DNA of 64,000 bases from an uncultured Methanosarcinales archaeon (GTDB lineage Archaea > Nanobdellota > Nanobdellia > Woesearchaeales > CAYZNE01): assembly GCA_964405295.1 (NCBI GenBank), contig CAYONI010000001.1:106422-170421 (forward strand), given 5' to 3'. The notes beneath the pieces are model-generated. The model worked only from the letters and a program-made list of their open reading frames with translations. It had not been told where the DNA came from and searched no databases. The first letter of the stretch is position 1; each line of letters opens with the position of its first letter. Below, piece by piece: positions 2,781 to 45,442 of the stretch. Position numbers and translations under genes: made by a program.

Positions 2781-2781
2781 A

Positions 2782-17951: not shown

Positions 17952-17993
17952 TTTATATCATATTTTTTTTATTTTGGGTTTATGTCCATAAAT

Positions 17994-19399: not shown

Positions 19400-19483
19400 G
19401 TTTCTTTTTTTCTTATTTTTTTCTTTTTTATTTTATTTAATTAATGATGATTATATTACTTATTAGATGTCGGAGAGATTTTT

Positions 19484-26646: not shown

Positions 26647-26705
26647 TATAGAGAATATTCGTACCTATATTTTAAAAACTTTTCTTTAATAGAAGCTATT
26701 AATTT

Positions 26706-27311: not shown

Positions 27312-27384
27312 ATATCCTAAATAGAGATTTTACATTAAAAATGTTTTCATTAATTATTTAAAGAGAGCTATATTCTATAATTCT

Positions 27385-28241: not shown

Positions 28242-28308
28242 TTATTCCACCTTATACTCAAAAAAGCTTTACTTTTTTGGTTGATATCTTTCTAAATCAA
28301 ATAAGATA

Positions 28309-28578
28309 TCATTTTAATAATCTATCAATAACATTAATGCTTTTGGCAATGTCTTCTCCTTTTTTTGTTAGAGAAATTATTTTTAATCTTCCCTTTTTTT
28401 TGAAAGTTACCATACCATCACTTTCCATCTCTTGCAATATCTTAACAATGTGGCTGTATGTGCAATCTATTTTTTTTGCAATAGTTGATGCATACATTTC
28501 CAGTTGTGTATTGACGAGAACTAAGAGTAATTTTGCTGGTTTTTCTCTAAACACTAAATTGAAATTTGTTTTTGCCAT
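28309..28578 (-). CDS. Small winged-helix DNA-binding regulator (MarR/ArsR-like).
   Basis: wHTH pattern ...MYASTIAKKIDCTYSHIVKILQEMESDGMVTFKKKGR. The start MAKTNF at 28578 is preferred, with a TATA-like tttataaa upstream. The longer track ORF would run into the promoter. Confidence 0.5.
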   Translation of the reverse strand: MAKTNFNLVFREKPAKLLLVLVNTQLEMYASTIAKKIDCTYSHIVKILQEMESDGMVTFKKKGRLKIISLTKKGEDIAKSINVIDRLLK

Positions 28579-28710
28579 AATTTGTCGAAAACTTAATTCT
28601 TTATAAAAGTTTTCATTATATACCTTAACATATATATTAATCAATATATTAGAAATTTCAGCAAAAACTTAATAAATCAACTATAGCTCACCAGGTTATA
28701 ATAACTAATT

Positions 28711-28716
28711 AGGTGG
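28711..28716 (+). promoter_or_regulatory. Shine-Dalgarno AGGTGG, 6 nt upstream of the ileS ATG.
   Basis: Purine-rich motif with appropriate spacing. Confidence 0.4.
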
Positions 28717-28722
28717 TAAAAT

Positions 28723-31700: not shown

Positions 31701-31842
31701 GAATATTAAAGAATTTGAAGATAATCTTAAGATAAAGGTCGGTGCAGATATAATTAATTATTCTGCAACTAAGAGTTGTGAGTTTAAATCTGATGAAAAA
31801 ATTAAGGGTAAACTTATTAGTATTGGGTTTAATAAAAAGTAA
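28723..31842 (+). CDS. ileS: Isoleucyl-tRNA synthetase.
   Basis: HIGH motif HMGHAWN. KMSKS motif KMSKSIGN. An editing-domain region is present. Length 1039 aa. Confidence 0.9.
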   Translation: MDLGKYGAETHKYILEFWKNKEIYPKSKIIFKKSENGKPFYFLQGPPYTSGTFHMGHAWNNSMKDFIIRYKRMQGFEVWDRGGYDMHGLPTAKAVQKLHNLKTKKDIEKFGFEHFAKECIKLSTGFAKQMSKDLWDMGIWMDHENAYKPIEQDYIDGVWFLIKTAHEKKRLYEGLRTTTWCRDCGTALAKHEQEYIQLIDKSIYVKFQSQDDENLYYIIWTTTPWTITFNLGIMVHPEFEYNKVEVNINSKKEFWIIAKELVETVMKKTELEYKVVDTFVGKNLEGKKYNHFWSKDIKDLADIDAKYEKAHSILLSNKFVTLDSGTGLVHTAPGCGPEDYEIGHRNGLPPFNTIDEQGKFIEGYSDFVGLIAKVDDKKFIEAMEKINAIIAKEDYVHDYATCERCHTPVVFRTTKQWFFKVEDLKPRMLEFHKKTNWVPETGGNSFASWLENLRDNSITKQRFWGTPLPIWRCDKCGQIEVIGSREELETKTDVLPEDLHKPWIDSIKWKCRKCSSGTMERLPDILDVWIDAGAASWNSLYYPKTKENFDKFFPADFILEGREQVRGWFNLLMVTSTIAFDKCPLKACYMHGMLTDVDGVKMSKSIGNVIKPEELTDKYGADTLRFYMPRTKAGQDINFSWLEAELAYKNLMILWNVHKLIINYADEIGETPSLVVDGELGISAKYIMSRLHSTIKSVTGKFDKYYLDQIPKEIEELFLELSRTYIQLNRESMALGSGSDKKKILDVLFTVLYEIVKMLNPICPFISEKIYQNFVEKDFVKEESINLEFWSKFDEKFIDVEFEKEFSLAMTVVEAGLNTRDKAQIGVRWPLMNLMVDTDKKEIIEKFQDIIKTQLNIKNIKFATPEFNIKVKVNYRAFGVKFGTETGDVLSMIKGKEEEIAKVFQLGKDYSIDLGKEPLVLPKELFEITKVCETHEVAKSKLGEVYLDKTPSKELESEGFSREITRRIQSLRKRVDMQKSDRIELFLQLPGDLNIKEFEDNLKIKVGADIINYSATKSCEFKSDEKIKGKLISIGFNKK

Positions 31843-31860
31843 AATTTGGTAATAGGTAAA

Positions 31861-32019
31861 AATGACTAAAATAAAAAAAGCATTATCAATATTATTAATT
31901 ATTCTTCTAGTTGCAAACATTGTATTACTTGCATTGAGAAAGATTGAAGTTTTATTTTTCTGGATAGTAATAATTGTGATTGCAGCATTGGTTCATTGGG
32001 GTTTGCCTAGAATAAAGTA
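31861..32019 (+). CDS. Small membrane protein, 52 aa (MTKIKKALSILLIILLVANIVLLALRKIEVLFFWIVIIVIAALVHWGLPRIK).
   Basis: Two hydrophobic helices. Read by hand; it is below the track cutoff. Confidence 0.3.
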
Positions 32020-32020
32020 A

Positions 32021-32767
32021 TTATTTTTTCTTCTTTTTCTTAAACAAAGAAAATTTCTTTTTTACTTTGGTTTTTTTAGCTTTTTTAACAGGTTTCACTT
32101 TTTTTGGCTTTTTGGCTTTAACTGCTTTATTCAACTTTTTTGTTTTTTTTACTTCTTTCTTTTTTGGTGAAACTTTTTTCACAACTTTCTTTTTTACTTC
32201 TGCTTTCTTAGGTTTAGATTCTTCAGTTTCTTCTTTTTTTGATTTTTTTGGTTTTCTTGAAAGAACATTTGCTTCAATCTCTTTTTCAAATTTTTCAATA
32301 CGTTTTGTTAAGAATTCTTTAGTTCTTTGATTATCTTGCTGGTTCATAATTTCGCCACAATCAGGACATTTAAAGTTAAGTTCAAATGCAGTGTCAAAAT
32401 TCATTCTTGTACAGGCGTTTCTGCACATATAAAAGTCATCTGTTGTTTCTTGATTAAGTCTTTCTTTTAGTTTATCTACCTTTATTTTCTTTATTTTCTT
32501 TGCAATATAGGGTATTTCTGGGATGTTTAGTGACCAATAACAAATATACCATCCTTTAACTTTATCTTTTTTTCTTATAAATATTACTATATTATCTTCT
32601 AGTAATTTGTAGAATATCTTCCTAACCCGGTGTATTTCAATATCCAAATCTTTTGCTATTACAAATTCTGAAATATTTTCTTTGCCAATTAGGTATAATG
32701 CGATAGGAAGAGCTTCAGGGCCAAATGTTTCGTTGATGACATACTCAATCTCTTTTTTTGTAGCCAT
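32021..32767 (-). CDS. tfe: Transcription factor E (TFIIE-alpha homologue) with a ~70-aa lysine-rich C-terminal tail.
   Basis: N-terminal winged helix (ALPIALYLIGKENISEFVIAKDLDIEIHRVRKIFYKL). Zinc ribbon CRNAC...CPDCGEIM. A tail of KKxxKK repeats. Confidence 0.7.
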   Translation of the reverse strand: MATKKEIEYVINETFGPEALPIALYLIGKENISEFVIAKDLDIEIHRVRKIFYKLLEDNIVIFIRKKDKVKGWYICYWSLNIPEIPYIAKKIKKIKVDKLKERLNQETTDDFYMCRNACTRMNFDTAFELNFKCPDCGEIMNQQDNQRTKEFLTKRIEKFEKEIEANVLSRKPKKSKKEETEESKPKKAEVKKKVVKKVSPKKKEVKKTKKLNKAVKAKKPKKVKPVKKAKKTKVKKKFSLFKKKKKK

Positions 32768-32982
32768 TTTGTTTTTTAGGTTAGTTTATTGGGTTTTGGA
32801 TTTTTAAACTTTGCGTTTGTTTTAAAAAGACCTTGTTATTACTTTTGAGTTTCAAAGTTTATATAGTTTTCTATTGTTTAGTATATACTATTTATAAATG
32901 GTGGCGTGAATTTCCCTATTTTGATTATTTTTGATTAATAGAATCACTGAAAATCAACAATAATTCATAAGTGTAATTTAAA

Positions 32983-33056
32983 TGGGCCCGCCCAGATTTG
33001 AACTGGGGACATCCACCAAGTCAGGGTGGCGTCATACCGGACTAGACCACGAGCCC
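32983..33056 (-). tRNA. tRNA-Val (anticodon GAC).
   Basis: Reverse complement GGGCTCG...CGGGCCCA. Anticodon stem CCACC/GGTGG with loop CTGACTT. T-arm CCCAG-TTCAAAT-CTGGG. Confidence 0.65.
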
Positions 33057-33078
33057 GTTTGCTTTTTAAATTCGCTTC

Positions 33079-33090
33079 GATATATAAATC
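33079..33090 (+). promoter_or_regulatory. TATA-like element (cgatatataaat) upstream of the hydrogenase operon.
   Basis: AT-rich TATA consensus 50-100 bp upstream of the first hydrogenase gene. Confidence 0.3.
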
Positions 33091-33139
33091 TATTCAAAAG
33101 CTTTATAAAACTCATACAGCAATATCTCTATTAAAGGGT

Positions 33140-33583
33140 GTGAGAGTGGAAAACAACAGTATTCTATCAAAAGAATCATCTGAATTGCTATTAATGCGAT
33201 TAAAGAAGATACAAGAAAAAGATAGTTACATCTCTGAGCAAGCTGTAAAAGCTCTTTCTAAAGAACTAAACATATCAGGCATCCAAATATACGAAGTTAT
33301 AACCTTTTATTCGTTTCTTAGTCACAAGGCTAAAGGAAAATATGTAATTAGGGTTTGTCATTCACCTTCATGCTATCTTAAGGGATCAACCAATATCTTC
33401 GAAGAATTAGAAAAGATTCTTGGGATTAAAGTTGGGGAAATAACAAAAGACGGTAAATTCTCAATCGAATACACTTCTTGCATAGGTTGTTGCAATGAGT
33501 CACCTGCTATTTTGATTAATAATATCCCTCATACTAAGCTAACTACTGAAAAACTAGCTAAAATATTAAAAAAATGCAAGTAA
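33140..33583 (+). CDS. HydC/NuoE-like thioredoxin-fold [2Fe-2S] subunit (24-kDa subunit family).
   Basis: Cys ligands in VCHSPSC ... TSCIGCC. The track ORF start at 33026 would overlap tRNA-Val, so an internal start is preferred: GTG at 33140 or 33146, or ATG at 33194. Confidence 0.65.
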   Translation: MRVENNSILSKESSELLLMRLKKIQEKDSYISEQAVKALSKELNISGIQIYEVITFYSFLSHKAKGKYVIRVCHSPSCYLKGSTNIFEELEKILGIKVGEITKDGKFSIEYTSCIGCCNESPAILINNIPHTKLTTEKLAKILKKCK

Positions 33584-34683
33584 TTAAAAAAACTAAATTC
33601 AAATCATTTGAAACTGCAGTTAGATTTAAGCCAGAAGAATTAATAGAAACAATAAAAGATTCTGGGCTTCATGGCAGAGGCGGTGCTAATTTTCTTACTG
33701 CACTCAAGCTAGATTTTTCTAGAAAAGCTGAAAAAGAAAAAGTTCTTATCTGTAATGCAGATGAAGGAGAACCTGGAACTTTCAAAGACAAATTTATTAT
33801 AACAGAAAACCCTGCACTCTTAATTGAAGGAATTGCTATTGCTTCATATATTATTGGTGCTAAAAGGGCTTATATTTATCTTAGGGCAGAATATGAATAT
33901 TTAAAAGAAAGTTTAGATAAAACTATTGCAAAATATAAAAAACAACTTTCTAAAATTAATTTGCAACTTGATGTTTTCATGGGTGAAGGAGCTTATGTAT
34001 GTGGAGATGAAACAGCTATTATGAACTCCATTGAGGGGAAAAGAGGTGAACCTCGACATAAGCCGCCTTATCCAGCTGAATATGGGGTTTTTGGTTATTC
34101 AACTTGTATTGATAATGTTGAAACTCTAAGTAATATTCCTTTGATAATTAAAGGAAAATGGAAGCATTTGAGATTGTTTTCTTTATCAGGGGATATTGAG
34201 AACCCTGGTGTTTACGAATTACAATTTGGAACTACGCTTGGAGATCTAATTAAACATTGCCATTTCAAAAGAACAGTTAAAGCAATATTTTTTGGTTGTG
34301 CAGGTGGCTGCATTCCTTTTGATCCTTCAACAGTTTTAGATGCAGAGCATATTAAAGAATTAGATGCAATGCTTGGCTCATGCACAATGATATTTGTTGA
34401 TACAAGTAGAAGTATTGTTGATATTTGTAAAAATATTGCAGAGTTCTTTGTTCATGAAAGTTGTGGGCACTGCACACCTTGTCGAGAAGGTAATTATAGA
34501 GTTTTAGAATTATTAAATAAATTAGTTGATGGGAAAGGTTCAATTGAAGATATTGAAATGCTTGAAGAACTTGCAGTTTTTATGAACGCAACTTCATTTT
34601 GTGGTCTAGGCCAAACAGCAGGTAACCATATTTTAACTGCACTTAAATATTTTAGAGAGGAGTTTGAAGAATTATGCAAATAG
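33574..34683 (+). CDS. HydB/NuoF-like NADH-binding flavoprotein subunit (51-kDa family), compact 369-aa form.
   Basis: GRGGANF. FMN-binding motif GEPGTFKDK. 4Fe-4S motif ESCGHCTPCREG. 10-nt overlap with the upstream gene. Confidence 0.8.
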   Translation: MQVIKKTKFKSFETAVRFKPEELIETIKDSGLHGRGGANFLTALKLDFSRKAEKEKVLICNADEGEPGTFKDKFIITENPALLIEGIAIASYIIGAKRAYIYLRAEYEYLKESLDKTIAKYKKQLSKINLQLDVFMGEGAYVCGDETAIMNSIEGKRGEPRHKPPYPAEYGVFGYSTCIDNVETLSNIPLIIKGKWKHLRLFSLSGDIENPGVYELQFGTTLGDLIKHCHFKRTVKAIFFGCAGGCIPFDPSTVLDAEHIKELDAMLGSCTMIFVDTSRSIVDICKNIAEFFVHESCGHCTPCREGNYRVLELLNKLVDGKGSIEDIEMLEELAVFMNATSFCGLGQTAGNHILTALKYFREEFEELCK

Positions 34684-36371
34684 AAATTAACGGTAAGAGG
34701 TATGGTGTAGAGGAAGGTAAAAGTATTTTGCAAGTTTGTGAAGAAAATAATATTTATATTCCTCATCTATGTTATCATCCTGATTTAGAACCTCAAGCTA
34801 AGTGTAGATTATGTTTAGTTGAGATTAATGGCAAGATAGATACTTCATGTAACAATAAAGTTAGGAAAGGCTTAATTATTAAAACAGACACTCCTGAAAT
34901 TATCAAGTTTAGAAAACTTAATTTAGAATTATTATTAGCAAACAAAAAAGAATTATTAGAAGAAGATAATGAAGTTTCAGAATTAGCTCGTAAGTTTGGA
35001 GTTACAACAGAACCTTTATTCAAAAAAAAAGAATTAAGAAAAGTTGCATTTTGCACATCTTTATGTAGAGACAATAGTAAATGTATTCATTGTGGTAAAT
35101 GTGTTCAGAAGTGTAGAGAAATTCAAGGTGTTGACGCTATAGGTATAGGCGGTCGAAGCCACGAAACACAGGTAACGTCTGTTTTTGATGAAACCATTGG
35201 TGATGTTGCATGTACATTCTGTGGTCAATGCACTAATGTTTGCCCAACAGGTGCAATAAAAGAACATGATTACACAGAAGAAGTTAAGAATGCAATAAGA
35301 GATTCAAATAAAATAGTTCTTGTTCAAACAGCACCTGCTACTCGTGCTACTGTAGGTGAAACCCAGGGAATGCCTCCAGGATCATTAGTTACAGGAAAAA
35401 TGGTTGCAGGATTAAGAAGACTTGGTTTTAATAAGGTTCTAGATACTAATTTTGGTGCAGATTTAACTATAATGGAAGAAGGAATAGAATTAATTGGTCG
35501 TATACAAAATAAAGGAATCTTTCCAATGATCACTTCTTGTTGCCCTGGATGGGTAAAATTTATTGAACATTTTTTCCCAGAACAATTAGAACATCTAAGT
35601 TCTTGTAAAAGCCCCCATCAAATGTTTGGTGCAATAGCTAAAACATATTATGCTAAAAAAAATAATTTTGATCCTAAAAACATAGTTGTGGTTAGCATAA
35701 TGCCTTGCACAGCTAAAAAGTTTGAAGCAGAAAGACCAGAAATGAAAAATCTTGGTCTAAAAGATGTTGATTATGTTCTTACAACAAGAGAATTAGGAAA
35801 CTGGTTGAATTCTGAAAACATAAAATTATCAGAGTTAGCTGATGAAGATTATGATCCCATAATGGGTTTGAGTACAGGGGCAGGAGCAGTATTTGGTGCA
35901 ACAGGAGGAGTAATGGAAGCTGCTTTGCGAACAGTAGCAGATGTTCTCGAAAGAAAAGATTTAGACAAAATAGATTACCATGAAGTTAGAGGAATGCAAG
36001 GAATAAGAGAAGCATCACTTAAAATTGCAGGAATGGATATCAATGTTGCAATTGCACATGACTTAAAGAATGCTAGAAAGATTATGCAAGACGTAAAAGA
36101 TGGTAAAAGTAAATATCACTTCATTGAAATAATGGCATGCCCTGGTGGCTGCATTGGAGGAGGTGGACAACCAATTCCAACAACAAAAGAAATAATAAAG
36201 AAAAGAGCTTCTGCAATTTATCACCAAGATAAAATACTTCCTATCCGTAAATCACATAAAAACCCAGAGATAAATACATTATATAAAGAATTCTTAGGCA
36301 AACCAGGTTCTGAAATTGCACATAAAATGCTACACACTTCTTACACGAAACGGAATAAGTGGGGAAATTAG
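34674..36371 (+). CDS. hydA: [FeFe]-hydrogenase catalytic subunit HydA of the multidomain M3 type.
   Basis: N-terminal 2Fe-2S (CYHPDLEPQAKCRLC). Two ferredoxin-type clusters (CIHCGKCVQKC; CTFCGQCTNVCPTGA). H-cluster motifs L1 TSCCPGW, L2 MPCTAKKFE and L3 EIMACPGGCIGGGGQP. Confidence 0.85.
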   Translation: MQIEINGKRYGVEEGKSILQVCEENNIYIPHLCYHPDLEPQAKCRLCLVEINGKIDTSCNNKVRKGLIIKTDTPEIIKFRKLNLELLLANKKELLEEDNEVSELARKFGVTTEPLFKKKELRKVAFCTSLCRDNSKCIHCGKCVQKCREIQGVDAIGIGGRSHETQVTSVFDETIGDVACTFCGQCTNVCPTGAIKEHDYTEEVKNAIRDSNKIVLVQTAPATRATVGETQGMPPGSLVTGKMVAGLRRLGFNKVLDTNFGADLTIMEEGIELIGRIQNKGIFPMITSCCPGWVKFIEHFFPEQLEHLSSCKSPHQMFGAIAKTYYAKKNNFDPKNIVVVSIMPCTAKKFEAERPEMKNLGLKDVDYVLTTRELGNWLNSENIKLSELADEDYDPIMGLSTGAGAVFGATGGVMEAALRTVADVLERKDLDKIDYHEVRGMQGIREASLKIAGMDINVAIAHDLKNARKIMQDVKDGKSKYHFIEIMACPGGCIGGGGQPIPTTKEIIKKRASAIYHQDKILPIRKSHKNPEINTLYKEFLGKPGSEIAHKMLHTSYTKRNKWGN

Positions 36372-36432
36372 AAGATAGTTTTATATATTTCAGGTTCATT
36401 CTATATAATATTATATTTATTAGGGGGTTATA

Positions 36433-36699
36433 ATGGTAAGAAAAACAACTAAAAGAGCAAATAAGAAAGTAAAAGAGACTATTGAAGTTAAAATTAAGAA
36501 AGGTGTTGATCGTAAGTTTAAGAGTTGTTATTCTCATAAACACAGTGGCGGATGTTTTTACTTTCTAGGTTTTCTTGGTGCATTAATATACTTTATATCT
36601 ACAGCAACAGGTTTCTGGGGCGTAGTTTTAGGAGTTTTGAAGTCTATTGTTTGGCCAGTATTTATTATTCATGGACTACTTAAGTTTCTAGGATTGTAA
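36433..36699 (+). CDS. Small protein with a basic N-terminus and two TM helices, 88 aa.
   Basis: ORF preceded by the Shine-Dalgarno GGGGGT. Confidence 0.35.
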   Translation: MVRKTTKRANKKVKETIEVKIKKGVDRKFKSCYSHKHSGGCFYFLGFLGALIYFISTATGFWGVVLGVLKSIVWPVFIIHGLLKFLGL

Positions 36700-36803
36700 T
36701 TCCGTTTTTCTTTTTATTTTATTTTTTATTTTTCTCCAAAACCTTTATATATAAATAACATAAATTCCTACATATAACTATATTATGTTTATGAGGTGCA
36801 ATC

Positions 36804-37781
36804 ATGCAAGAATTTATGCAGTCAATTAAAGCAAAAGCAAAAGCTGACAAAAAAACAATCGTATTTCCAGAATCACAAGATGAAAGAATTCTAAAAGCTA
36901 CAGATGAAATTTTAAAACAGGGAATTGCAAACATTATTCTTCTAGGTAATGAAGAAACAATAAAATCTAAAGCAAATGAGTTAAATATTAACCTGGATGT
37001 AGCAAGAATTATAGATCCAAACTCTTTCGAAAAGTTTGACGAATACGCAAACACTTATTTTGAACTAAGAAAACATAAAGGGATAACCTTAGAACAAGCA
37101 AAAGAAGCTTTAATGCACACAACTTATTTTGGAACTATGTTGGTTCATATGAATGAAGCTGATGGTCTAGTTTCAGGTGCAACACATACTACTGCAGAAA
37201 CAATAAGGCCTGCACTACAAATTATTAAGACAAAAGAGGAGTATCACAAAGTATCTTCTTTCTTTTTTATGCAATTAAAAGATAAAATATTTATTTTCGC
37301 AGATTGTGCAGTTATCATTAATCCTGACGCAGAAGAATTAGCTCATATAGCTATAGATTCAGCGAGAAATGCAAAGAAATTTGGTATAGATCCAAGGGTT
37401 GCAATGCTTTCTTTTTCAACTAAGGGTTCTGCAAAGCACGAATTAGTAGATAAAGTAACAACTGCACTAAAACTTGCAAGAGAATTACAGCCTGATTTAA
37501 TTATTGACGGTGAAATGCAAGTTGATGCAGCAATAGTTCCTGCTATTTGTGAAAAGAAATGCAAAGATTGCTATTTACATGGTGATGCTAATGTTTTAAT
37601 TTTTCCAGACTTACAGAGTGGAAATATTGCATATAAGTTAGTTGAAAGATTAGCTAGAGCAAATGCAATTGGCCCAATTATGCAGGGATTTAACAAACCA
37701 ATAAACGACCTTTCAAGAGGTTGTGATGTGGATGATGTTATTGATGTTACTGCAATAACGGTTGTTGAGGCACAGAAATGA
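36804..37781 (+). CDS. pta: Phosphate acetyltransferase (phosphotransacetylase), short ~325-aa form.
   Basis: Length and pattern typical of Pta (…GLVSGA.HTTA…RP.L…; C-terminal …DLSRG…). GAGGTG Shine-Dalgarno. ATGA overlap with ackA. Confidence 0.8.
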   Translation: MQEFMQSIKAKAKADKKTIVFPESQDERILKATDEILKQGIANIILLGNEETIKSKANELNINLDVARIIDPNSFEKFDEYANTYFELRKHKGITLEQAKEALMHTTYFGTMLVHMNEADGLVSGATHTTAETIRPALQIIKTKEEYHKVSSFFFMQLKDKIFIFADCAVIINPDAEELAHIAIDSARNAKKFGIDPRVAMLSFSTKGSAKHELVDKVTTALKLARELQPDLIIDGEMQVDAAIVPAICEKKCKDCYLHGDANVLIFPDLQSGNIAYKLVERLARANAIGPIMQGFNKPINDLSRGCDVDDVIDVTAITVVEAQK

Positions 37782-38929
37782 ATATTTTAGTTCTAAACTC
37801 AGGAAGTTCTTCTTTAAAATATCAATTAATTAATATGAATACCAATAAGCCTATTCTGAAAGGCCATATTGATGGTATTGGTTTAAAGACTTGTAAAATT
37901 GACTTTGCAAGTAAAAAAGGAAACCTAAGTAAAGAATTAAAAATAAAAAATCATAAAGCTGCAGTTAAGTTAGCAATTGAATCTTTAGAAGGATATAAAA
38001 TTAAAGCAATTGGTCATAGAGTTGTTCATGGTGGAGAACTTTACAGTGATGCAACCCTAATAGATAAAAAGGTAATACAGGCAATAGATAAGTTGAGCGA
38101 GTTAGCTCCTCTACACAATCCCCCTAATCTTGCAGGAATTAAAGCTTGCAAAAAACTTTTTCCTAATCTTACTCAGGTTGCAGTTTTTGATACTGCATTT
38201 CACCAAACTATTCCTGAAAAAGCTTACCTATACGGTATTCCATTAGAATACTATAAAAAATATGGAATAAGAAAATATGGTTTTCATGGAACATCTCATA
38301 AATATGTTATGCTTGAAGCTCAAAAACATTTTCATAAAAAGAAATATATTAATGTGATTACTTGTCATCTTGGTAATGGCGCTAGTATTGCTGCTATTGA
38401 AAAAAATAAGTCTGTTGATACTTCTATGGGGTTTACTCCTCTACCAGGTTTAATTATGGGAACTCGTTCTGGTGATATTGATCCTGCAATTGTATCATTT
38501 TTAATGACAAATCTAAAAAAGAAATCTGGTGATGTTATTCAAATACTAAATAAGCAATCTGGTTTACTGGGTATTTCTGGTTATTCTGATATGAGAACAA
38601 TTCATAAAAAAGCTTCAAAGAATAAGTTTTGTCGTATAGCATTGGATATGTTTGTATACAGGGTTGTTCAGTATATTGGAAGTTATTTTGCTGTTCTTAA
38701 AAAGGTTGATGCAATTGTTTTCACAGCGGGATTAGGTGAAGAAGCTTATTATGTTAGAGAAAAAGTTTGTAAATCTCTTGTTAATTTTGGTGTAATACTT
38801 AATAAAACTAAAAATAAGAAAAATGCAAGAGTAATTTCATCAGCCAAGTCTGATGTAAAAGTCTTAGTGATTTCTACAAATGAAGAGTTGATGATTGCCA
38901 AGGAAACTTTAGAAATAATAAAAAACTAA
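37778..38929 (+). CDS. ackA: Acetate kinase.
   Basis: N-terminal motif MNILVLNSGSSSLKYQL. Internal motifs HRVVHGG and VTCHLGNGASI. Confidence 0.85.
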   Translation: MNILVLNSGSSSLKYQLINMNTNKPILKGHIDGIGLKTCKIDFASKKGNLSKELKIKNHKAAVKLAIESLEGYKIKAIGHRVVHGGELYSDATLIDKKVIQAIDKLSELAPLHNPPNLAGIKACKKLFPNLTQVAVFDTAFHQTIPEKAYLYGIPLEYYKKYGIRKYGFHGTSHKYVMLEAQKHFHKKKYINVITCHLGNGASIAAIEKNKSVDTSMGFTPLPGLIMGTRSGDIDPAIVSFLMTNLKKKSGDVIQILNKQSGLLGISGYSDMRTIHKKASKNKFCRIALDMFVYRVVQYIGSYFAVLKKVDAIVFTAGLGEEAYYVREKVCKSLVNFGVILNKTKNKKNARVISSAKSDVKVLVISTNEELMIAKETLEIIKN

Positions 38930-39411
38930 TAATCTTCAGCATCAAGATTAAACTCTGCACTCTCTACCCATTGATTAGGTTCTTGTAAATAATTTAGAAT
39001 TTCTTGCAGAATCTTTTTATGTTTTAATTCTTCGTCTGCAATCATTAATACTTCTTTTTTTACAGTTTCATCTGCAATCTCTGCAGCAATTTCTTTGTAA
39101 TAGTTTGCAGATTTTATCTCAACATTAATAGCTTCTTCATAGAAAGCAATTTGTTCTGAAATATGATCTGGTGCATTAATATTTTTTAGAGAGCTAAATA
39201 TTTTTTTTACTTCTTCAGTCGTTGCTTTCTTAACTTCAATTAAATCTGCTTCTTGTTGCATTGCATCAAAGATTATGTAATGATTGTCTTCCCATTCTGC
39301 CAATCTTCTAAGAATATTTTTTAGTGCAGGATTAGTTGTTTTCTCAAGCATTTCTAGATAAGCTTGTTTCCCTTCTAATTCCATTTTCTTTGCGATTTCA
39401 AATACATCCAT
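38926..39411 (-). CDS. Rubrerythrin-like / ferritin-like diiron protein with no rubredoxin domain.
   Basis: Two ExxH motifs (EDNH; EELKH) in a four-helix-bundle-sized protein. Confidence 0.55.
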   Translation of the reverse strand: MDVFEIAKKMELEGKQAYLEMLEKTTNPALKNILRRLAEWEDNHYIIFDAMQQEADLIEVKKATTEEVKKIFSSLKNINAPDHISEQIAFYEEAINVEIKSANYYKEIAAEIADETVKKEVLMIADEELKHKKILQEILNYLQEPNQWVESAEFNLDAEDY

Positions 39412-39432
39412 TTTTAATTTCCTCCATTAATA

Positions 39433-42400
39433 TTATTCTTTACTCATCTTTTCATATTCTGCAGCTCTAAACTTTGCATCTTCTTCTGCAAGTTTAAATA
39501 GCTTATCTGCAATATCTGGAAATTGTATTGTAAGACTTTTATATCTTCGTTCTTTATGTAAAAAATTAGTGTAAGGAACTTTGCCAGTTACATGGTAATC
39601 TAATTGCATTGGGTTTTTACCTTCTTCACACAATCTAGGATCATATCTATACAATGGCCAATACCCTGAAGTAACTGCTAATTTTTGTTCTTGAGGAGTT
39701 TTCTTCATATTTCCTCCATGTGCAATACACGGTGAATAAGCAATTATTATTGAAGGTCCATCATATTCTTCTGCTTCTTTAAAAGCTTTAATTGCCTGCA
39801 TCATATTCGCGCCTAGAGAAATAGATGCGACATAGATGTTTCCATAAGTTGTAAACATTCTTCCTAAATCTTTTTTAGGTTGTTTTTTACCTGAAACAGC
39901 AAACTTTGCAGTTGCAGCACGAGGTGTTGCTTTAGAACATTGTCCTCCTGTATTAGAATAAACTTCTGTATCTAAAACAAGAACATTAACATTTTCTCCT
40001 GAAGCAAGAACATGATCTAAACCACCAAAACCAATATCATAAGCCCATCCATCACCACCAATAACCCATACAGATTTGTCAACTAAGTAATCTTTAAGCT
40101 CATCTATTTTCTTAAGAATGGGTTCACTTTCTCCGTGAACACAACTTATTGCTTCTGGTAAATGTTTAATAATTTCTTCTGCAGCATTCTTAGCAGAATC
40201 ATCAACTTTATCCCAAACTTTTAACATATTATCGAGATGGACTTTCAACCCATTGGTTGTTCCAGTATTCAACAATCTTTCAATGTTAGATTGCAACAAT
40301 TTACGATTAGCATCAATTGCAAGTCTAAAGCCCATCCCGTATTCTGCATTATCTTCAAACAAGGAGTTTGCCCATGCAGGACCTTTGCCTTCTTTGTTTT
40401 TAGCAAAAGGAATTACTGGAAATGTTCCACCGTAAATAGATGAACAGCCAGTTGCATTTGCAATTATCATTCTATCTCCAAATAATTGAGTAACAAGTTT
40501 AACGTAGGGTGTTTCTCCACACCCAGCACATGCTCCTGAAAACTCAAATAAAGGCGTTCTTAATTGCGTTCCTTTAATACTATATAGTGGGGTTTTACCT
40601 AAAACATTATCTGGTAGGGAGTCAAAGAATTTAGCATTCTCAACTTCGCCTGCAGTCCTTGCTTCTGATAATGTTTGTGTAGTTAATGCTCCAACAGGAC
40701 AAGTAGCAACACAGTTATTACACGCATCACACCCAGTGCAATCTTCTGGATAAATTTGTATTCTAAACTTTAAGCCAGATTCGGGGTTTGCGTCTATAAC
40801 ATTAAATGTTGAAGGTGCATTCTTTAAATCCTCAGGATTAATTTGTTTCATTCTAATTGATGCATGTGGACAAACCATTGCGCACATTCCACACTGAGTA
40901 CACTTCTCAGGTATCCATTTAGGAACATTATTTGCAATACCCCTCTTTTCAAGTTTACTAGTTGCTGTTGGTATTGCACCATCTAGTGGCATTTTTGAAA
41001 CAGGAATCGTATCTCCTTTTAGTTTCATTACTGGTTCAACAACATCTTTTGCAAATTGAGATGCATTGTCTGGTAAGAATTTAAATTCAGCAACATGTAT
41101 TCCAGAAAAGTTTTCAACTTTTGAAACAGCATTCTTAGATGCTTCTATTGCATCCCAATTCATCTTAACTATATCTTCACCTTTTTTAGAGAATTGTTTT
41201 TTAATAGCTTCTTTCATTAACTTAAATGCTTCTTCTGCAGGGATAATTTTTGCTAATTTAAAGAATGCAGTCTGCATAATAGTATTAATTCTTATGCCTA
41301 AACCAACTTCTTTTGCTATTTTATTAGCATCAATAACATAAAAACTAATTTTTTTATCAACAATAGTTTTCTGCATTTTTTCTGTTAAATGAGAAAATGC
41401 TTCATCTTTATTCCAAGGGCAATTAAATAAGAATGTTCCCCCTTCTACAATGCCTTCCAAAATATCATAGTGTCCAATATAAGAGGGCTTATGTAGTGCA
41501 ATGAAGTCTGAATGAACTAGCTGATATTCTGATCTTATCTGATTATCACCAAATCTTAGATGAGAAACAGTTACTCCACCTGATTTGTGTGAATCATAAG
41601 CAAAGTATGCTTGAACATGTTTGTCTGTTGCAGCACCAATAATTTTTATGGAATTCTTATTTGCACTAACTGTTCCATCAGAACCATATCCCCAAAATTT
41701 ACATCTAACAACAGATTCAGGTTCTGTATCAATTTCACCAACTTCTAATGATTTGTGTGTTACATCATCAATTATTCCAACAGTAAAATCATGAGTGCAC
41801 TTATTATCTAAATGGTCAAATACTGCTTTAACCATTGCAGGACTAAATTCTTTTGATGATAATCCATATCGTCCACCAATAATCTTTATATTTTTGTCTT
41901 TAAGTGCAGCAACTGTATCCATGTAGAGAGGCTCACCAATACTTCCAGGCTCTTTTGTTCTATCAAGAACTGCAATCTTTTTAACAGTTGATGGGATTAT
42001 ATCAATAAAATCTTTAACACTAAAAGGCCTATATAGACGAACTTTAATTAGTCCAACTTTTTCACCCTTTTTATTAAGGTAATCAACAACTTCATGTATT
42101 GTTTCATTAGAAGATGTCATCGAAATTATTATTTTTTCAGCATCAGGCGCGCCAACATAATCAAATAAATTATATTCTCGTCCAAATTTCTCTTTAAACA
42201 TTCTCATATATTTTTTTACAATACCTGGACAAGCATCATAATATTTGTTAACTGTTTCTCTGCCTTGAAAATAAACATCAGGATTTTCTGCACCAACTTT
42301 GCACATTGGTCTTTCAGGACTTAAAGAATTAAGTTTAAAATTTTTAATAGCTTCTAAATTAAGCATAGATTTAACTATTTCTTCATCAATTGCCTCTATC

Positions 42401-42942
42401 TTTTTGATTGAATGAGAAGTTCTAAACCCATCAAAAAAGTTTAAGAAAGGAACTCGTGATTCCATTGTAGCTAAATGTGAAATTACACCAAGATCTTGAA
42501 CTTCTTGGATAGATGCTGCAGCCATTAAAGCAAAACCAGTATTCCTGGTTGACATAACATCAGAATGATCTGCAAAAATGGATAATGCTTGGCAAGCAAG
42601 TGATCTTGCTGCAACATGGAAAACCGTTGGTAACATTTCTCCTGCAATCTTATGCATGTTAGGAATCATTAATAATAATCCTTGTGATGCAGTAAATGTT
42701 GTTGTCATTGCACCTGCAGATAGAGAACCATGAATTGCTCCAGAAGCTCCTCCTTCTGATTGCATTTCGATAACTCTTACTGTTTCCCCAAAAAGATTCT
42801 TTTTTCCTTTCGCAGAATTAAAATCTGCTAATTCTCCCATTGAAGAAGACGGGGTTATAGGATATATTGCTGCAACTTCACTAAACATATATGATGTATT
42901 AGATGCTGCTGTGTTTCCGTCAATTGTGATATATTTCTTCAT
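39433..42942 (-). CDS. nifJ: Pyruvate:ferredoxin (flavodoxin) oxidoreductase, single-polypeptide NifJ/PorA type.
   Basis: Length 1169 aa. Ferredoxin motifs CTQCGMCAMVCP and CTGCDACNNCVATCP. TPP motif GDGWAYDIGFGG...NTGGQ. Confidence 0.9.
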   Translation of the reverse strand: MKKYITIDGNTAASNTSYMFSEVAAIYPITPSSSMGELADFNSAKGKKNLFGETVRVIEMQSEGGASGAIHGSLSAGAMTTTFTASQGLLLMIPNMHKIAGEMLPTVFHVAARSLACQALSIFADHSDVMSTRNTGFALMAAASIQEVQDLGVISHLATMESRVPFLNFFDGFRTSHSIKKIEAIDEEIVKSMLNLEAIKNFKLNSLSPERPMCKVGAENPDVYFQGRETVNKYYDACPGIVKKYMRMFKEKFGREYNLFDYVGAPDAEKIIISMTSSNETIHEVVDYLNKKGEKVGLIKVRLYRPFSVKDFIDIIPSTVKKIAVLDRTKEPGSIGEPLYMDTVAALKDKNIKIIGGRYGLSSKEFSPAMVKAVFDHLDNKCTHDFTVGIIDDVTHKSLEVGEIDTEPESVVRCKFWGYGSDGTVSANKNSIKIIGAATDKHVQAYFAYDSHKSGGVTVSHLRFGDNQIRSEYQLVHSDFIALHKPSYIGHYDILEGIVEGGTFLFNCPWNKDEAFSHLTEKMQKTIVDKKISFYVIDANKIAKEVGLGIRINTIMQTAFFKLAKIIPAEEAFKLMKEAIKKQFSKKGEDIVKMNWDAIEASKNAVSKVENFSGIHVAEFKFLPDNASQFAKDVVEPVMKLKGDTIPVSKMPLDGAIPTATSKLEKRGIANNVPKWIPEKCTQCGMCAMVCPHASIRMKQINPEDLKNAPSTFNVIDANPESGLKFRIQIYPEDCTGCDACNNCVATCPVGALTTQTLSEARTAGEVENAKFFDSLPDNVLGKTPLYSIKGTQLRTPLFEFSGACAGCGETPYVKLVTQLFGDRMIIANATGCSSIYGGTFPVIPFAKNKEGKGPAWANSLFEDNAEYGMGFRLAIDANRKLLQSNIERLLNTGTTNGLKVHLDNMLKVWDKVDDSAKNAAEEIIKHLPEAISCVHGESEPILKKIDELKDYLVDKSVWVIGGDGWAYDIGFGGLDHVLASGENVNVLVLDTEVYSNTGGQCSKATPRAATAKFAVSGKKQPKKDLGRMFTTYGNIYVASISLGANMMQAIKAFKEAEEYDGPSIIIAYSPCIAHGGNMKKTPQEQKLAVTSGYWPLYRYDPRLCEEGKNPMQLDYHVTGKVPYTNFLHKERRYKSLTIQFPDIADKLFKLAEEDAKFRAAEYEKMSKE

Positions 42943-44810
42943 TTAAATGCCTCATTTTGTCCATTAAGTACTTGTTGCCAATATTCTTTCGCAGCAGAAA
43001 CTTTATCTTTATTAAATTTATTAACTAACTTTTTTAATTCTTGGTTATCTGGTTCTCCAGTAAAAATCTTTTCAAGATATATTTTAATAATATCAATATT
43101 CTTCTCAGATTCCCAGAAAATTGGTTGATTGCCAAGATTAATTTTTTGTGCTAATTTTTTGTGATGAGCAAAATAATCAATATTTTCATTAAATAATTTA
43201 TTAATTAATTTTTCTATTAATTTTTCTACCCATTTTCTATGAAATCTACAAATTCCAGAATTATCAGAATAAAGTTCTTTTATCATTCTTTCAACATTCT
43301 TTTTTCCAAGATCGAATGGATTTAAATAATCTGATCCATAATATTCAAAGTATTTGCCCATTATTGGCATTGGTGAAAACATTCCAGGTACCCAGTACTG
43401 ATTTGGGACCATGCAGCCTTCTTTTCCAAACGCATTAAAGACTGAAAGATCAATAGTGTTTGTACCATATTTTATATCAATTTCTTTAGCAGCATTTCTT
43501 ATACCTTTTCTAAAAATTGCACACTTATCACTATTTATTATCCTATCAATAATTTGGCAGGCCATATCTGCATTGTGATTAGAATCATTAACTAAATCAA
43601 AAGTCTTATAGTCCCATTTTGGAATCATGTCAATATCAAAATCTTCTTTAGGAAATTTATTTTTAGAAATACATTCCATTATCCAAGAAACTAAGGATCC
43701 TGCTTGAATTGCATCAAAAGCCATTGAATCAACATAGTGATTAATTTTTTCTGCTGCTCTCTGATCAAAAACACCAATATTTGGTCCTAGGGCTTCGTAT
43801 GGTTCATAATCTTTTTTGAATTTACCATTCATCTTTTTGCAAACTGCAGAACAGGGTTCACCACAATTCTTAAATTGCTTCTTATCAATTGTTTCTTCAT
43901 TAAATTGTTTAAGGTAATGAGCTAAAATAAATCTATTGTGTATATCAATTCTTTCTTGTTCTGTAAAATAGATTGATTGATAATTAAAAGAAAACATCCA
44001 TCCTTTTAATCTGGTGAAATTAACTCCGAATGTTCCTCCAGAGTGTAGTTCAGGATTGTATCTGTACTTAATTGTTTCTGCAATATCTTCTTGGATCATA
44101 TTCTTATGAAATTCTTTTTCAAATATTTCATTTATTTCATCTCTATCATTTAGAGGTGAGTCTGTAGGTTCTTTAAAATCACCACCATAAATAATTGCTG
44201 CAATTCCATGTTCTTGAAGTAATTTTGATCCGATGCCTCCTCTGCCAGCCCAACAGTCAACAGCAGTTATTTCCCCATTGGTAATTGGTGCAGAACCAAT
44301 TGCTCCTGTTCTTGTTTTAAGTGCAGCAGGGCCTGTTGAAAGAATTCTGCAAGAATTAAAATCTTTACCATAATTATCATAAACATGTTGCTGTAGAGCA
44401 TAAATGCCTTTTTCTTCTTTATATCCTGACCATATCTTCAGATTAACAGGATAAAACGCAACAGTTAAATTTGAATTCTGCCTTTTTATTTCTAAAACAG
44501 AGATTTCATTACATTTTCCTTTAATATTAACATAATTTATTCCTAAGTGATGAAAAATGTGTGCTGCCCCACCCATTGTTGAGATATAGAAATGGCCCCA
44601 TAAAGGGGATAATCCTGTAAACATCATTCTTTTTGTTCCCGGTATTTTAGAACCTGCTAGAATTCCTTTACCAAAACAAAAGTTATTTTTATCTTCATTA
44701 AATTTCTTAATACCATAATCAATTGGTCCAATAATAGTTTTATCTTCAATTTTTCTAACTTCAAATTTTTGGTTTGAAGCATCTATTATAAGTTCGTTTT
44801 GATTTATCAT
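42939..44810 (-). CDS. Tungsten-type aldehyde:ferredoxin oxidoreductase (AOR family).
   Basis: The N-terminal AOR domain pattern (GILAGSKIPGTKRMMFTGLSPLWG...NIKGK) and the ~620-aa length fit the AOR family. Cys cluster CGEPCSAVC. ATGA overlap with PFOR. Confidence 0.75.
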   Translation of the reverse strand: MINQNELIIDASNQKFEVRKIEDKTIIGPIDYGIKKFNEDKNNFCFGKGILAGSKIPGTKRMMFTGLSPLWGHFYISTMGGAAHIFHHLGINYVNIKGKCNEISVLEIKRQNSNLTVAFYPVNLKIWSGYKEEKGIYALQQHVYDNYGKDFNSCRILSTGPAALKTRTGAIGSAPITNGEITAVDCWAGRGGIGSKLLQEHGIAAIIYGGDFKEPTDSPLNDRDEINEIFEKEFHKNMIQEDIAETIKYRYNPELHSGGTFGVNFTRLKGWMFSFNYQSIYFTEQERIDIHNRFILAHYLKQFNEETIDKKQFKNCGEPCSAVCKKMNGKFKKDYEPYEALGPNIGVFDQRAAEKINHYVDSMAFDAIQAGSLVSWIMECISKNKFPKEDFDIDMIPKWDYKTFDLVNDSNHNADMACQIIDRIINSDKCAIFRKGIRNAAKEIDIKYGTNTIDLSVFNAFGKEGCMVPNQYWVPGMFSPMPIMGKYFEYYGSDYLNPFDLGKKNVERMIKELYSDNSGICRFHRKWVEKLIEKLINKLFNENIDYFAHHKKLAQKINLGNQPIFWESEKNIDIIKIYLEKIFTGEPDNQELKKLVNKFNKDKVSAAKEYWQQVLNGQNEAFK

Positions 44811-44831
44811 TTTAATATAAAAAGAAATTAA

Positions 44832-45329
44832 TTAGGTAGTACATGTCTGTCCACAAAAACAACCACTTATATTCAATTCGTCACCACCAAATCCATAAAT
44901 AACCTGAGGATAATTGGATGTACTGTCCATTACAATAATTCTGTTATTAGAATCTTCTAGAACAATACAGAAATCTCCTGTAATCCCGAGTTCACTTCTA
45001 ATTAAATCATAGTCTCCACTATTATATAAGTTTTCAAGTGCAGTTGTATTGACTGTGTTGCCATTTAAGATAACATTATCAGAATCACTTTTACTTGCAT
45101 CAAAATAATTCATGATTCTACCTGCATTGCTTTTCATAGCATCTACATCTGAATTGCTGCCTTTACTTATTAACATATAAAATATGGACAGTATAAGTAC
45201 AAATATTACAATTCCTAGTATAAGATCTAATGACCAATTCTGCCCTTTCTTAAGAAGTTTTTTAACCATCTTTTTCCCCTCTTTTTTATCTAAATTTTTA
45301 GGATTTTTATTCATTTTTTGATTAAACAC
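44832..45329 (-). CDS. Type IV pilin-like protein with a class III signal peptide. The true start is probably the internal Met (MVKKLLKKGQ...) near 45270.
   Basis: KKGQNWSLDLILGIVIFVLILSIFYML has a basic stretch, a G/Q cleavage site and a hydrophobic helix. The track start is a GTG. Confidence 0.45.
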   Translation of the reverse strand: MFNQKMNKNPKNLDKKEGKKMVKKLLKKGQNWSLDLILGIVIFVLILSIFYMLISKGSNSDVDAMKSNAGRIMNYFDASKSDSDNVILNGNTVNTTALENLYNSGDYDLIRSELGITGDFCIVLEDSNNRIIVMDSTSNYPQVIYGFGGDELNISGCFCGQTCTT

Positions 45330-45442
45330 CCAATATAACCCTTAATAAGGTTATTTTAGTGAGATTTCTTTAAAAAGGTTTTTGCTATAAGTCTAAACAT
45401 TATATGAAAACTTTTAAAAAGACACTATTATATACTAATAAT

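Follow-up and report, generated by a model that had tools for sequence, protein, structure and literature searches.

A compact [FeFe]-hydrogenase, possibly NADH-linked and non-bifurcating, in a fermentation neighbourhood of a Woesearchaeota-type archaeon

Trimeric group A [FeFe]-hydrogenases, encoded by hydA together with one gene resembling nuoF and another resembling nuoE, are known from five subgroups of Woesearchaeota, where they are monophyletic with those of other DPANN archaea and where Pta-AckA and pyruvate:ferredoxin oxidoreductase (PFOR) have also been reported (Huang et al., 2021; PMC8421398). This was extended to at least six DPANN phyla, with oxoacid:ferredoxin oxidoreductases and acetate kinase nearby and, among 130 genomes of archaea, just 5 that have a full set of HydEFG maturases (Greening et al., 2024; PMC11216029), and a further study from 2024 showed that such genes are transcribed in situ (PMC11606122). 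Here we describe a locus of this kind in a stretch of 64,000 nucleotides (positions 106,422 to 170,421 of contig CAYONI010000001.1, assembly GCA_964405295.1; hereafter the window), in which an overlapping hydC-hydB-hydA operon adjoins genes for phosphate acetyltransferase (Pta), acetate kinase (Ack) and PFOR. The window thus joins a published cluster type, in which a trimeric [FeFe]-hydrogenase goes together with PFOR and Pta-Ack while HydEFG is missing. An initial annotation of the window had called such hydrogenases and the Pta-Ack pair rare in archaea, which holds for cultured archaea but not for Woesearchaeota and other DPANN archaea, where the same gene set is known (PMC8421398, PMC11216029). 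The new part is a reassignment of the hydrogenase, which is a modest refinement that needs biochemistry.

Bifurcating HydABC enzymes have been solved from Thermotoga maritima, Acetobacterium woodii and Thermoanaerobacter kivui (7p5h, 7q4v, 8a6t; PMC9499530). Structurally tied to bifurcation in these enzymes are the N- and C-terminal cluster domains of HydB, a Zn hinge and a His-ligated [4Fe-4S] cluster that, in the T. maritima structure, stands outside the chain that runs from FMN to the H-cluster and connects two protomers electrically (PMC9499530). Every bifurcating [FeFe] enzyme that has been characterised possesses the C-terminal HydB clusters, and non-bifurcating ones lack them (PMC9499530). 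Losey et al. (2020; PMC7311640) recognise bifurcating enzymes by their NADH site, which has A or E plus M, by an F in the FMN site, by a GGPSG motif and by the number of Fe-S domains. By contrast, in the non-bifurcating signature the NADH site has T or S plus K, S or A, the FMN site has Y, GGPSG is lacking and HydB contains fewer Fe-S domains (PMC7311640). Hyd1ABC of Syntrophomonas wolfei is non-bifurcating by experiment (PMC5626996, PMC7311640). The hydrogenosomal Hyd, NuoE and NuoF of Caecomyces churrovis also make H2 from NADH without ferredoxin by experiment and depend on H2-consuming partners; the Losey criteria fit this fungal Hyd-NuoEF too, as a third enzyme that is non-bifurcating by experiment (PMC13556243). 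For enzymes of this type, H2 release from NADH is confined to H2 activities that correspond to roughly 1–10 Pa (PMC13556243).

The hydrogenase genes of the window overlap by 10 nt at both the hydC/hydB and the hydB/hydA junction:

33146..33583, plus strand: hydC, NuoE-like thioredoxin-fold [2Fe-2S] subunit, 145 aa, GTG start (PF01257, 146 bits)
33574..34683, plus strand: hydB, minimal NuoF-like FMN/NADH subunit, 369 aa, single [4Fe-4S] of N3 type (Complex1_51K and NADH_4Fe-4S)
34674..36371, plus strand: hydA, group A [FeFe]-hydrogenase, 565 aa (Pfam and NCBIfam models above cut-offs)

All three H-cluster motifs noticed in the initial annotation can be read in the HydA translation, namely TSCCPGW (L1), MPCTAKKFE (L2) and EIMACPGGCIGGGGQP (L3), and they agree with the patterns for group A enzymes (L1 TSCCPxW, L2 MPCxxKxxE, L3 ExMxCxxGCxxGGGQP, with the proton-relay Cys). 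HydA matches Fe_hyd_lg_C (334 bits) and Fe_hyd_SSU and passes both TIGR02512 (521 bits, cut-off 406) and NF040763 (798.8 bits, cut-off 765). Judged by these motifs and models, HydA is a catalytic group A [FeFe]-hydrogenase, and we rejected a sensory, non-catalytic or Cys-less homologue, which the initial annotation had named as the outcome that would undo its proposal. The protein is laid out as a [2Fe-2S] domain, two [4Fe-4S] clusters (both CxxCxxCxxxC motifs), the H-domain and a tail that resembles a small subunit. The [4Fe-4S] cluster that has a His ligand (FS4C/A4) is missing, its H-x3-C-x2-C-x5-C motif being deleted or replaced, which leaves the M3 accessory set incomplete. In the alignment to HydA1 of A. 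woodii (7q4v_A), the best solved-structure match (E 4e-176), HNRECTTCIRSENC corresponds to KKE----LLEEDNE in the window HydA.

This loss is shared. An intact FS4C motif is absent from all 40 best database matches of HydA (P0002-P0041, 53–89% identical) and from several further matches and loci. In a neighbour-joining (NJ) tree, 53 of the 59 motif-less HydAs form one clade (bootstrap 100/100) and the other six fall outside it. Names in the clade are Woesearchaeota, Nanoarchaeota and Micrarchaeia, plus a Parachlamydiales metagenome-assembled genome (MAG; L005) and a bacterial contig (L009). We did not use the NCBIfam name "NADH-dependent [FeFe] hydrogenase, group A6" as evidence of mechanism; the group A6 model is unlikely to separate the types because HydAs that keep FS4C (47–52% identical) adjoin full-length HydBs with the bifurcating signature.

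The initial annotation had described HydB as unusually compact and without extra ferredoxin domains, and alignment to solved chains agrees. HydB is below even the NuoF of complex I (418–445 aa) in length and aligns only to the NuoF core (approximately positions 140–525) of the roughly 600-aa HydB/NfnB chains (7q4v_B, 7p5h_B, 9n5u_B). There is no N-terminal [2Fe-2S] domain and no C-terminal domain with two [4Fe-4S] clusters, as the chain ends 2–3 residues past the NuoF core. The motifs of the window HydB are EGEPGTFKD, GEGAYVCGDE and GCAGG. At the NADH site it reads PGTFKD (T, K) where bifurcating enzymes have PGAFMD (A, M), at the FMN site it reads GAYVCG, with Y in place of F, and GCAGG stands where bifurcating enzymes have GGPSG. 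Thus, HydB agrees with all four parts of the non-bifurcating signature and lacks the bifurcating one. HydC keeps its four Cys ligands: in the numbering of the translation that starts at 33137 these are C74, C79, C115 and C119, and they do not vary in an alignment of orthologues.

To place these features among relatives, HydA and HydB were taken from 80 genome loci with HydA relatives and 65 complete HydBs were compared. Most of them (52) carry PGAFMD (PGAYMN in two) and GAFVCG and are mostly 595–630 aa long, with a few shorter or fused to approximately 1000 aa. The other 13, including the window HydB, carry PGTFKD (PGRFKD in two) and G(A/S)Y(V/I)CG, and eight of these are compact (359–412 aa). 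The 52 bifurcating-type HydBs show no variation at the Cys columns of the C-terminal clusters, where the window HydB has gaps. Four further columns invariant in the 52 (C, H, C, C) fit the 3-Cys-1-His Zn hinge (PMC9499530). In the window HydB the first two of these columns are S280 and L367, and the chain stops short of the other two; the first two positions in Nqo1 are likewise Ser and Leu (PMC9499530). In every case where a complete HydB could be read beside a HydA of the motif-less clade (L001, L005, L009, L026, L033, L038, L053 and L083-L086), it is 359–374 aa long and has the non-bifurcating signature. The nearest HydB representatives in a 50%-identity library are 355–382 aa long, plus one HydC-HydB fusion.

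These comparisons set the window apart from some described systems and bring it close to others. The DPANN enzymes published as group A3 resemble it in lineage, in hydC/hydB/hydA organisation, in the co-occurrence of PFOR-type enzymes and Pta-Ack, in the lack of HydEFG and in belonging to a DPANN-rich HydA clade. However, those papers assign the bifurcating class, and the clade of the window lacks every sequence and domain criterion for bifurcation. The window shares the central wire from FMN to the H-cluster with the solved bifurcating HydABC enzymes, which include the best solved match for its HydA and close ones for its HydB; the additional HydB domains, the Zn hinge and the protomer-joining cluster are what it does not share. 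S. wolfei Hyd1ABC is like the window in having three subunits, T/K and Y at the signature sites, no GGPSG and a short HydB (407 aa) without the N-terminal [2Fe-2S] domain, and also in the predicted chemistry, an interconversion of NADH and H2 without ferredoxin. The window enzyme is leaner, with one [4Fe-4S] in HydB compared to two and with no His-ligated cluster in HydA, so that the predicted accessory [4Fe-4S] clusters total three compared to five. The metabolic settings also differ: S. wolfei generates NADH and little ferredoxin, whereas genes next to the window hydrogenase encode enzymes that reduce ferredoxin. The C. churrovis enzyme is like the window in having [2Fe-2S], FMN and one [4Fe-4S] in NuoE/NuoF. 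However, the fungal NuoEF comes from mitochondrial complex I and is encoded apart from the hydrogenase, whereas the window has one overlapping operon with subunits of the prokaryotic HydBC lineage; the resemblance is functional and is not one of family membership.

A relative provides both types of enzyme in one archaeon. On contig CAZDZV010000007.1 of GCA_964510025.1 (L086; 8473-16222), which is archaeal by its genes for Nop10, eIF2-alpha and ribosomal protein S27e, a compact and a canonical hydCBA operon lie in tandem. The compact operon (146/366/563 aa) has the non-bifurcating signature and no His-ligated cluster. The canonical operon (197/577/567 aa) encodes a HydB with PGAFMN, GAFVCG, GGPAGG and C-terminal Fer4 domains and a HydA that keeps FS4C, and it is followed by genes for GAPDH, an H+-pyrophosphatase and PGK. 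That the two are kept side by side argues that they are non-redundant and have different jobs. Another contig (L004) has a second HydC and the start of a second HydB after its compact hydA and ends before the type can be read; this second operon is probably canonical. The tandem operons of L086 offer a natural comparison for the parts that make bifurcation possible.

Beside the hydrogenase, the window encodes the enzymes of a route from pyruvate to acetate:

36804..37781, plus strand: pta, phosphate acetyltransferase, 325 aa (PF01515, 451 bits; TIGR00651, 421.6 bits, cut-off 311.2)
37778..38929, plus strand: ackA, acetate kinase, 383 aa (PF00871, 474.8 bits; TIGR00016, 473.8 bits, cut-off 293.4)
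38926..39411, minus strand: rubrerythrin-like di-iron protein, 161 aa (PF02915, 41.3 bits, cut-off 22.8)
39433..42942, minus strand: single-polypeptide pyruvate:ferredoxin (flavodoxin) oxidoreductase, PFOR, 1169 aa (TIGR02176, 1693 bits, cut-off 911)
42939..44810, minus strand: tungsto/molybdopterin oxidoreductase of the AOR family, GAPOR-like, 623 aa (AFOR_N and AFOR_C)

The open reading frame (ORF) listing and profile searches recovered every gene named in the initial annotation in the order given there: hydC-hydB-hydA, the overlapping pta-ackA pair and, converging on these, the rubrerythrin-like gene and the AOR-PFOR operon. We are confident of these gene identities and of their native archaeal context. 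The pta/ackA pair and the AOR-family gene/PFOR pair each overlap by 4 nt in the same orientation, ackA and the rubrerythrin-like gene converge with a 4-nt overlap, and the hydCBA operon and the PFOR operon form transcription units of their own that run toward each other. Pta and Ack are adjacent and both above their family cut-offs. PFOR covers positions 2–1166 of the 1167 in TIGR02176, as a fused single chain does, and contains the Pfam domains POR_N, PFOR_II, POR, EKR, Fer4 and TPP_enzyme_C. The proposal that conversion of pyruvate through acetyl-CoA and acetyl phosphate to acetate and ATP is encoded next to a group A [FeFe]-hydrogenase is therefore upheld by the family models.

Two of the earlier names needed refinement. 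The protein called AOR belongs to that family by its AFOR_N and AFOR_C domains and carries a CGEPCSAVC motif, but AOR in the strict sense was rejected. Its sole NCBIfam match is GAPOR_Arch (E 1e-125, positions 6–644 of 654), at 420.6 bits under the equivalog cut-off of 1300 bits, hence GAPOR-like rather than GAPOR. Among solved structures it matches FOR at E 6e-5 only and no AOR, and GAPOR is the JGI name of a protein in the same 90%-identity cluster. The AOR-family gene/PFOR pair is conserved in a relative (L083). The GAPOR-like reading probably extends the route back to the oxidation of glyceraldehyde-3-phosphate to 3-phosphoglycerate. The rubrerythrin-like protein has the di-iron four-helix domain, with E...ExxH twice, but no CxxC pair and no rubredoxin domain as in a full rubrerythrin; in L085 the gene after hydA encodes a rubrerythrin that has such a domain, of the rubredoxin-type RUBY_RBDX family. 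We regard the window protein as a putative defence against peroxide or O2. Among archaea, Methanosarcina has the classic bacterial-type Pta-Ack pair, like that of the window. Thermococcales are like the window in ferredoxin-linked glycolysis through GAPOR and in pyruvate oxidation, a likeness that for GAPOR is limited by the window assignment being below the NCBIfam cut-off; they differ in using an ADP-forming acetyl-CoA synthetase and a membrane-bound [NiFe]-hydrogenase, where the window has Pta-Ack and a soluble [FeFe] enzyme.

We slightly favour the reading that HydCBA of the window acts as a reversible, non-bifurcating NADH:H+ oxidoreductase that is independent of ferredoxin, with S. wolfei Hyd1ABC and the fungal hydrogenosomal Hyd-NuoEF as its models, because the complex lacks every element tied to bifurcation or to ferredoxin binding. 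The suggestion in the initial annotation that the hydrogenase might bifurcate is not borne out by either subunit, as HydB fails all published criteria and HydA has no His-ligated cluster. Under this reading, a GAPOR-like enzyme (a probable identity) would oxidise glyceraldehyde-3-phosphate and PFOR, whose identity is shown, would oxidise pyruvate, both reducing ferredoxin. Pta and Ack, identified with the same firmness as PFOR, would convert acetyl-CoA to acetate with a gain of one ATP. The hydCBA operon would supply a minimal three-subunit [FeFe]-hydrogenase with a predicted wire from NADH through FMN and the [4Fe-4S] of HydB to the [2Fe-2S], two successive [4Fe-4S] and H-cluster of HydA, with the [2Fe-2S] of HydC probably off the path. 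H2 would form from NADH only while a partner holds H2 very low, which would fit a DPANN symbiont among H2 consumers. Reduced ferredoxin would enter indirectly, by way of a ferredoxin:NAD+ oxidoreductase whose genes lie elsewhere, for example Rnf. This complex is present in some Woesearchaeota (PMC8421398, PMC11606122) and would close the ferredoxin loop. The small di-iron protein would probably shield the oxygen-sensitive enzymes. As a whole, we put the probability of a native chromosomal neighbourhood of a Woesearchaeota archaeon for the last steps in the fermentation of sugar, with ancient genes and a minimal NADH-linked hydrogenase, at roughly 60%.

Several observations weigh against an NADH-only enzyme. 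Its PFOR and GAPOR-like neighbours yield reduced ferredoxin and not NADH. No rnf, Nfn, GAPDH or ferredoxin gene and no second hydrogenase was found in the window or 10 kb beyond either end, and a six-frame scan of the window for CxxCxxCxxxC[PGAS] found the motif in HydA and PFOR only and no ferredoxin gene. With no ferredoxin:NAD+ oxidoreductase, GAPDH or ferredoxin gene in this region, another sink for ferredoxin is needed, and in a genome without any link between ferredoxin and NADH the enzyme must accept ferredoxin somehow. Greening et al. find HydABC to be the sole hydrogenase in most genomes of archaea; the same situation here would favour some ferredoxin input. Three papers class the DPANN enzymes as bifurcating group A3 (PMC8421398, PMC11216029, PMC11606122). 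The Losey criteria are based on few characterised enzymes, and the HydA tree is a neighbour-joining tree from a sample biased toward close matches. Finally, HydB scores 286–294 bits against bifurcating HydB/NfnB and 264–272 bits against NuoF; because these scores are similar, the non-bifurcating call rests on signature residues and domain content rather than on a clear phylogenetic placement.

The published view is that HydCBA is an electron-confurcating group A3 enzyme, which makes H2 from NADH and reduced ferredoxin together and would drain the ferredoxin of PFOR and the GAPOR-like enzyme directly. The three-gene hydC-hydB-hydA organisation that defines HydDB group A3 (PMC8421398, PMC11216029) is present in the window, and this view accounts for a hydrogenase that adjoins two ferredoxin-reducing enzymes, for the lack of another ferredoxin sink in the region and for the slightly higher score of HydB against bifurcating HydB/NfnB. 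We consider it unlikely, though it is the alternative that survives best. The window HydB has neither the C-terminal pair of [4Fe-4S] clusters present in every characterised bifurcating [FeFe] enzyme nor the N-terminal [2Fe-2S], the Zn hinge or the A/M, F and GGPSG signatures (PMC7311640, PMC9499530), the cluster that links the protomers is gone from HydA, and L086 holds a canonical operon beside its compact one.

HydA might instead accept electrons straight from ferredoxin in the manner of the monomeric clostridial enzyme, with HydBC as an NAD(H) side branch without energetic coupling, so that the complex would be a ferredoxin hydrogenase and a ferredoxin:NAD+ oxidoreductase at once. The gene context that produces reduced ferredoxin suits this arrangement, and, as a speculation, the next cluster might become exposed once the FS4C subdomain is gone. 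The hydrogenosomal NuoEF pair of trichomonads is reported to exchange electrons with ferredoxin. However, we expect the interface with HydB to bury the [2Fe-2S] of HydA, and S. wolfei Hyd1ABC made no H2 from reduced ferredoxin (PMC5626996), which makes direct use of ferredoxin improbable in our view.

We give very little weight to a hydrogenase that works mainly in uptake, making NADH with the H2 of neighbours in a cell otherwise short of reducing power, while acetate and ATP are made from pyruvate independently of it. Non-bifurcating NADH-linked enzymes are reversible and transfer from H2 to NAD+ is downhill at ordinary H2 levels (PMC5626996, PMC13556243), and hydCBA and the PFOR operon are indeed separate convergent units. 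By contrast, two ferredoxin-reducing steps leave a fermenter in need of an outlet for electrons and not of a further input, and [FeFe]-hydrogenase genes of Woesearchaeota are transcribed in situ in the same MAGs as fermentation genes (PMC11606122).

The host is a Woesearchaeota-type DPANN archaeon, as the initial annotation had supposed when it spoke of a DPANN-like archaeon. Archaeal markers in the window are TFE-alpha, a NOG1-type GTPase, family-B DNA polymerase (PolB), a beta-CASP RNase J and an EMC3/DUF106 insertase, and ScpB, GatD/GatE and an LSM protein are encoded in the 10 kb past the window ends. The named relatives of PolB are almost all Candidatus Woesearchaeota, Nanoarchaeota or DPANN, at 50–54% identity. 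A tRNA-Arg(CCT) with a 17-nt intron (54336-54427, minus strand), found by Rfam and by ARAGORN in intron mode and missed by default ARAGORN, fits an archaeal host.

The exact HydA and AOR-family proteins recur on independently assembled contigs. One of these (L001, JGI 3300031657) is 99.99% identical over 24674..42796 and spans the left border of the cluster with IleRS, TFE, the tRNA and hydC. Two others (L087 from ENA and L088 from JGI) are 100% identical over 42802..47112 and span the right border from the AOR-family gene into LeuRS, and a Logan contig (L002) is 100% identical over 33735..40431. The initial annotation had allowed for a chimeric bacterial/archaeal mis-assembly; with both borders crossed by independent assemblies, we rejected this.

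The Pta-Ack pair, PFOR as a single chain and [FeFe]-hydrogenase are all typical of bacteria, and the initial annotation had read their clustering as a horizontally acquired island. The composition check that it proposed showed no deviation. GC content is approximately 0.30–0.34 in the cluster compared to 0.26–0.34 around it, GC content at third codon positions (GC3) is 0.16–0.27 in cluster genes compared to 0.12–0.33 in the flanks, and cluster and flanks correlate in synonymous codon fractions (r = 0.99) and tetranucleotides (r = 0.97). No integrase or transposase gene lies in or next to the cluster. Many Woesearchaeota relatives of Ack, at 55–60% identity, come ahead of bacterial names (Carboxydothermus and Peregrinibacteria, 53–55%), the relatives of HydA bear the names Nanoarchaeota or Woesearchaeota, and both Ack and HydABC occur across Woesearchaeota with divergences comparable to those of PolB. 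In L083, whose HydA is 79% identical, the neighbourhood of IleRS, TFE, hydCBA, pta-ack, PFOR and the AOR-family gene is kept, whereas only hydCBA stays together in L084, L085 and L086 (HydA 61–66% identical). Because composition matches the flanks and the genes are widespread in the lineage, these genes are old residents and not a recent island. The bacterial-type genes are ancient, fully ameliorated acquisitions, any transfer being ancient, and their tight clustering in the window is a local arrangement.

Transfer of HydABC between domains has happened. The Parachlamydiales MAG (L005, 8533-11692) and the bacterial contig (L009, 8437-11695, with RF-1 and ComEC) carry compact hydCBA, and the Parachlamydiales HydA nests among archaeal sequences in a 34-member subclade (NJ bootstrap 99); with these nested bacterial members, the transfer may have run in either direction. 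Although the bacterial character of the enzymes and these two sequences inside the HydA clade would suit a recently transferred island or an assembly chimera, three assemblies across the borders, native composition, the lack of bordering mobility genes, the neighbourhood shared with L083 and the spread of the genes in Woesearchaeota make this all but untenable, and none of the features that would mark a recent island was found.

The remaining features in and around the cluster are:

32021..32767, minus strand: TFE-alpha, the transcription factor E of archaea, which marks the host as archaeal on the left flank (PF02002, E 5.5e-15)
32983..33056, minus strand: tRNA-Val(GAC) (ARAGORN and Rfam RF00005, 55.9 bits)
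36433..36699, plus strand: orf88, 88 aa, with a basic N-terminus and a hydrophobic C-terminal half (translation; no family match)
44832..45329, minus strand: orf165, 165 aa (translation; no Pfam or NCBIfam match)
45404..48133, plus strand: leucyl-tRNA synthetase (LeuRS), right-flank housekeeping gene (Pfam)

The TFE-alpha neighbour is also kept in L001 and L083. The initial annotation had hydC begin at 33026. We moved the start to GTG 33146 by alignment with four orthologues of 145–147 aa and rejected the earlier one, as an ORF from the GTG at 33026 has its first 31 nt on the opposite strand of tRNA-Val(GAC) and is at odds with the orthologue lengths. A TATA-like TTTATAAA lies approximately 45 nt upstream of hydC. 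No hydE, hydF or hydG was found in the window, as had been observed before, or in the 10 kb past either end. Between hydA and pta, orf88 matched no Pfam or NCBIfam family; it is kept in L001, L002 and L003 (85% identity in L003) and is followed by a T-rich (oligo-T) stretch. By eye, its hydrophobic half may form membrane helices. The product of orf165, just upstream of the GAPOR-like/PFOR pair and present in L087 and L088, has a basic N-terminus, KKGQ and one hydrophobic stretch (KKGQNWSLDLILGIVIFVLIL). This N-terminus resembles an archaeal class III (pilin-type) signal peptide, and the protein is probably unrelated to the fermentation pathway.

Elsewhere in the window, LeuRS (45404-48133, plus strand) matches the editing-domain model PF13603 (244 bits). 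This model is one that LeuRS of bacterial type typically matches, and the match would point to a further old gene of bacterial type in this archaeon. A 706-aa helicase (49270-51390, minus strand) joins a UvrD/REP core to RQC at its N-terminus and HRDC at its C-terminus, two accessory domains usually found on RecQ helicases. ARAGORN places a candidate tRNA-Gln(TTG) at 6681-6753 (plus strand), below the Rfam gathering score and with an irregular D-arm. Large proteins of 1098, 413, 788 and 681 aa with PKD, Big_9 or NEW3-like domains (14655-21850, plus strand; 24601-26646, minus strand) are putative surface or adhesion proteins of a kind often seen in DPANN genomes. At the right edge (approximately 63845-64000), some 19 kb from the cluster, begins a gene for a tyrosine recombinase of the phage-integrase family (seen in L090:8774-9622), which may be an archaeal Xer-type recombinase. 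A thymidylate synthase-like ORF (2701-3429, plus strand) overlaps the preceding 546-aa ORF by 80 nt from its first ATG; this long start is probably wrong, and the ENA call on L089 starts later (215 aa).

A full-text literature search found no paper with both "non-bifurcating" and "DPANN". We tentatively suggest, at somewhat less than even odds, that the DPANN enzymes known as group A3 would include a distinct, monophyletic and ultra-minimal class, in which HydA has no His-ligated cluster and a HydB of approximately 365 aa has neither the extra clusters nor the Zn hinge. Such enzymes would be NADH-linked and independent of ferredoxin, would be shared by DPANN, Chlamydiota and a few other bacteria, and would in some archaea stand beside a true bifurcating enzyme. 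If the clade uses NADH only, it would be the smallest known natural wire from NADH to H2, of some interest for enzyme engineering, and a separate link from ferredoxin to NAD+ would be needed. The redox balances drawn for DPANN archaea, for which three papers assume confurcation of NADH and ferredoxin, would then change. If this is true, H2 release by such archaea would be thermodynamically possible only beside an H2 consumer, which would give an enzymatic reason for their dependence on partners.

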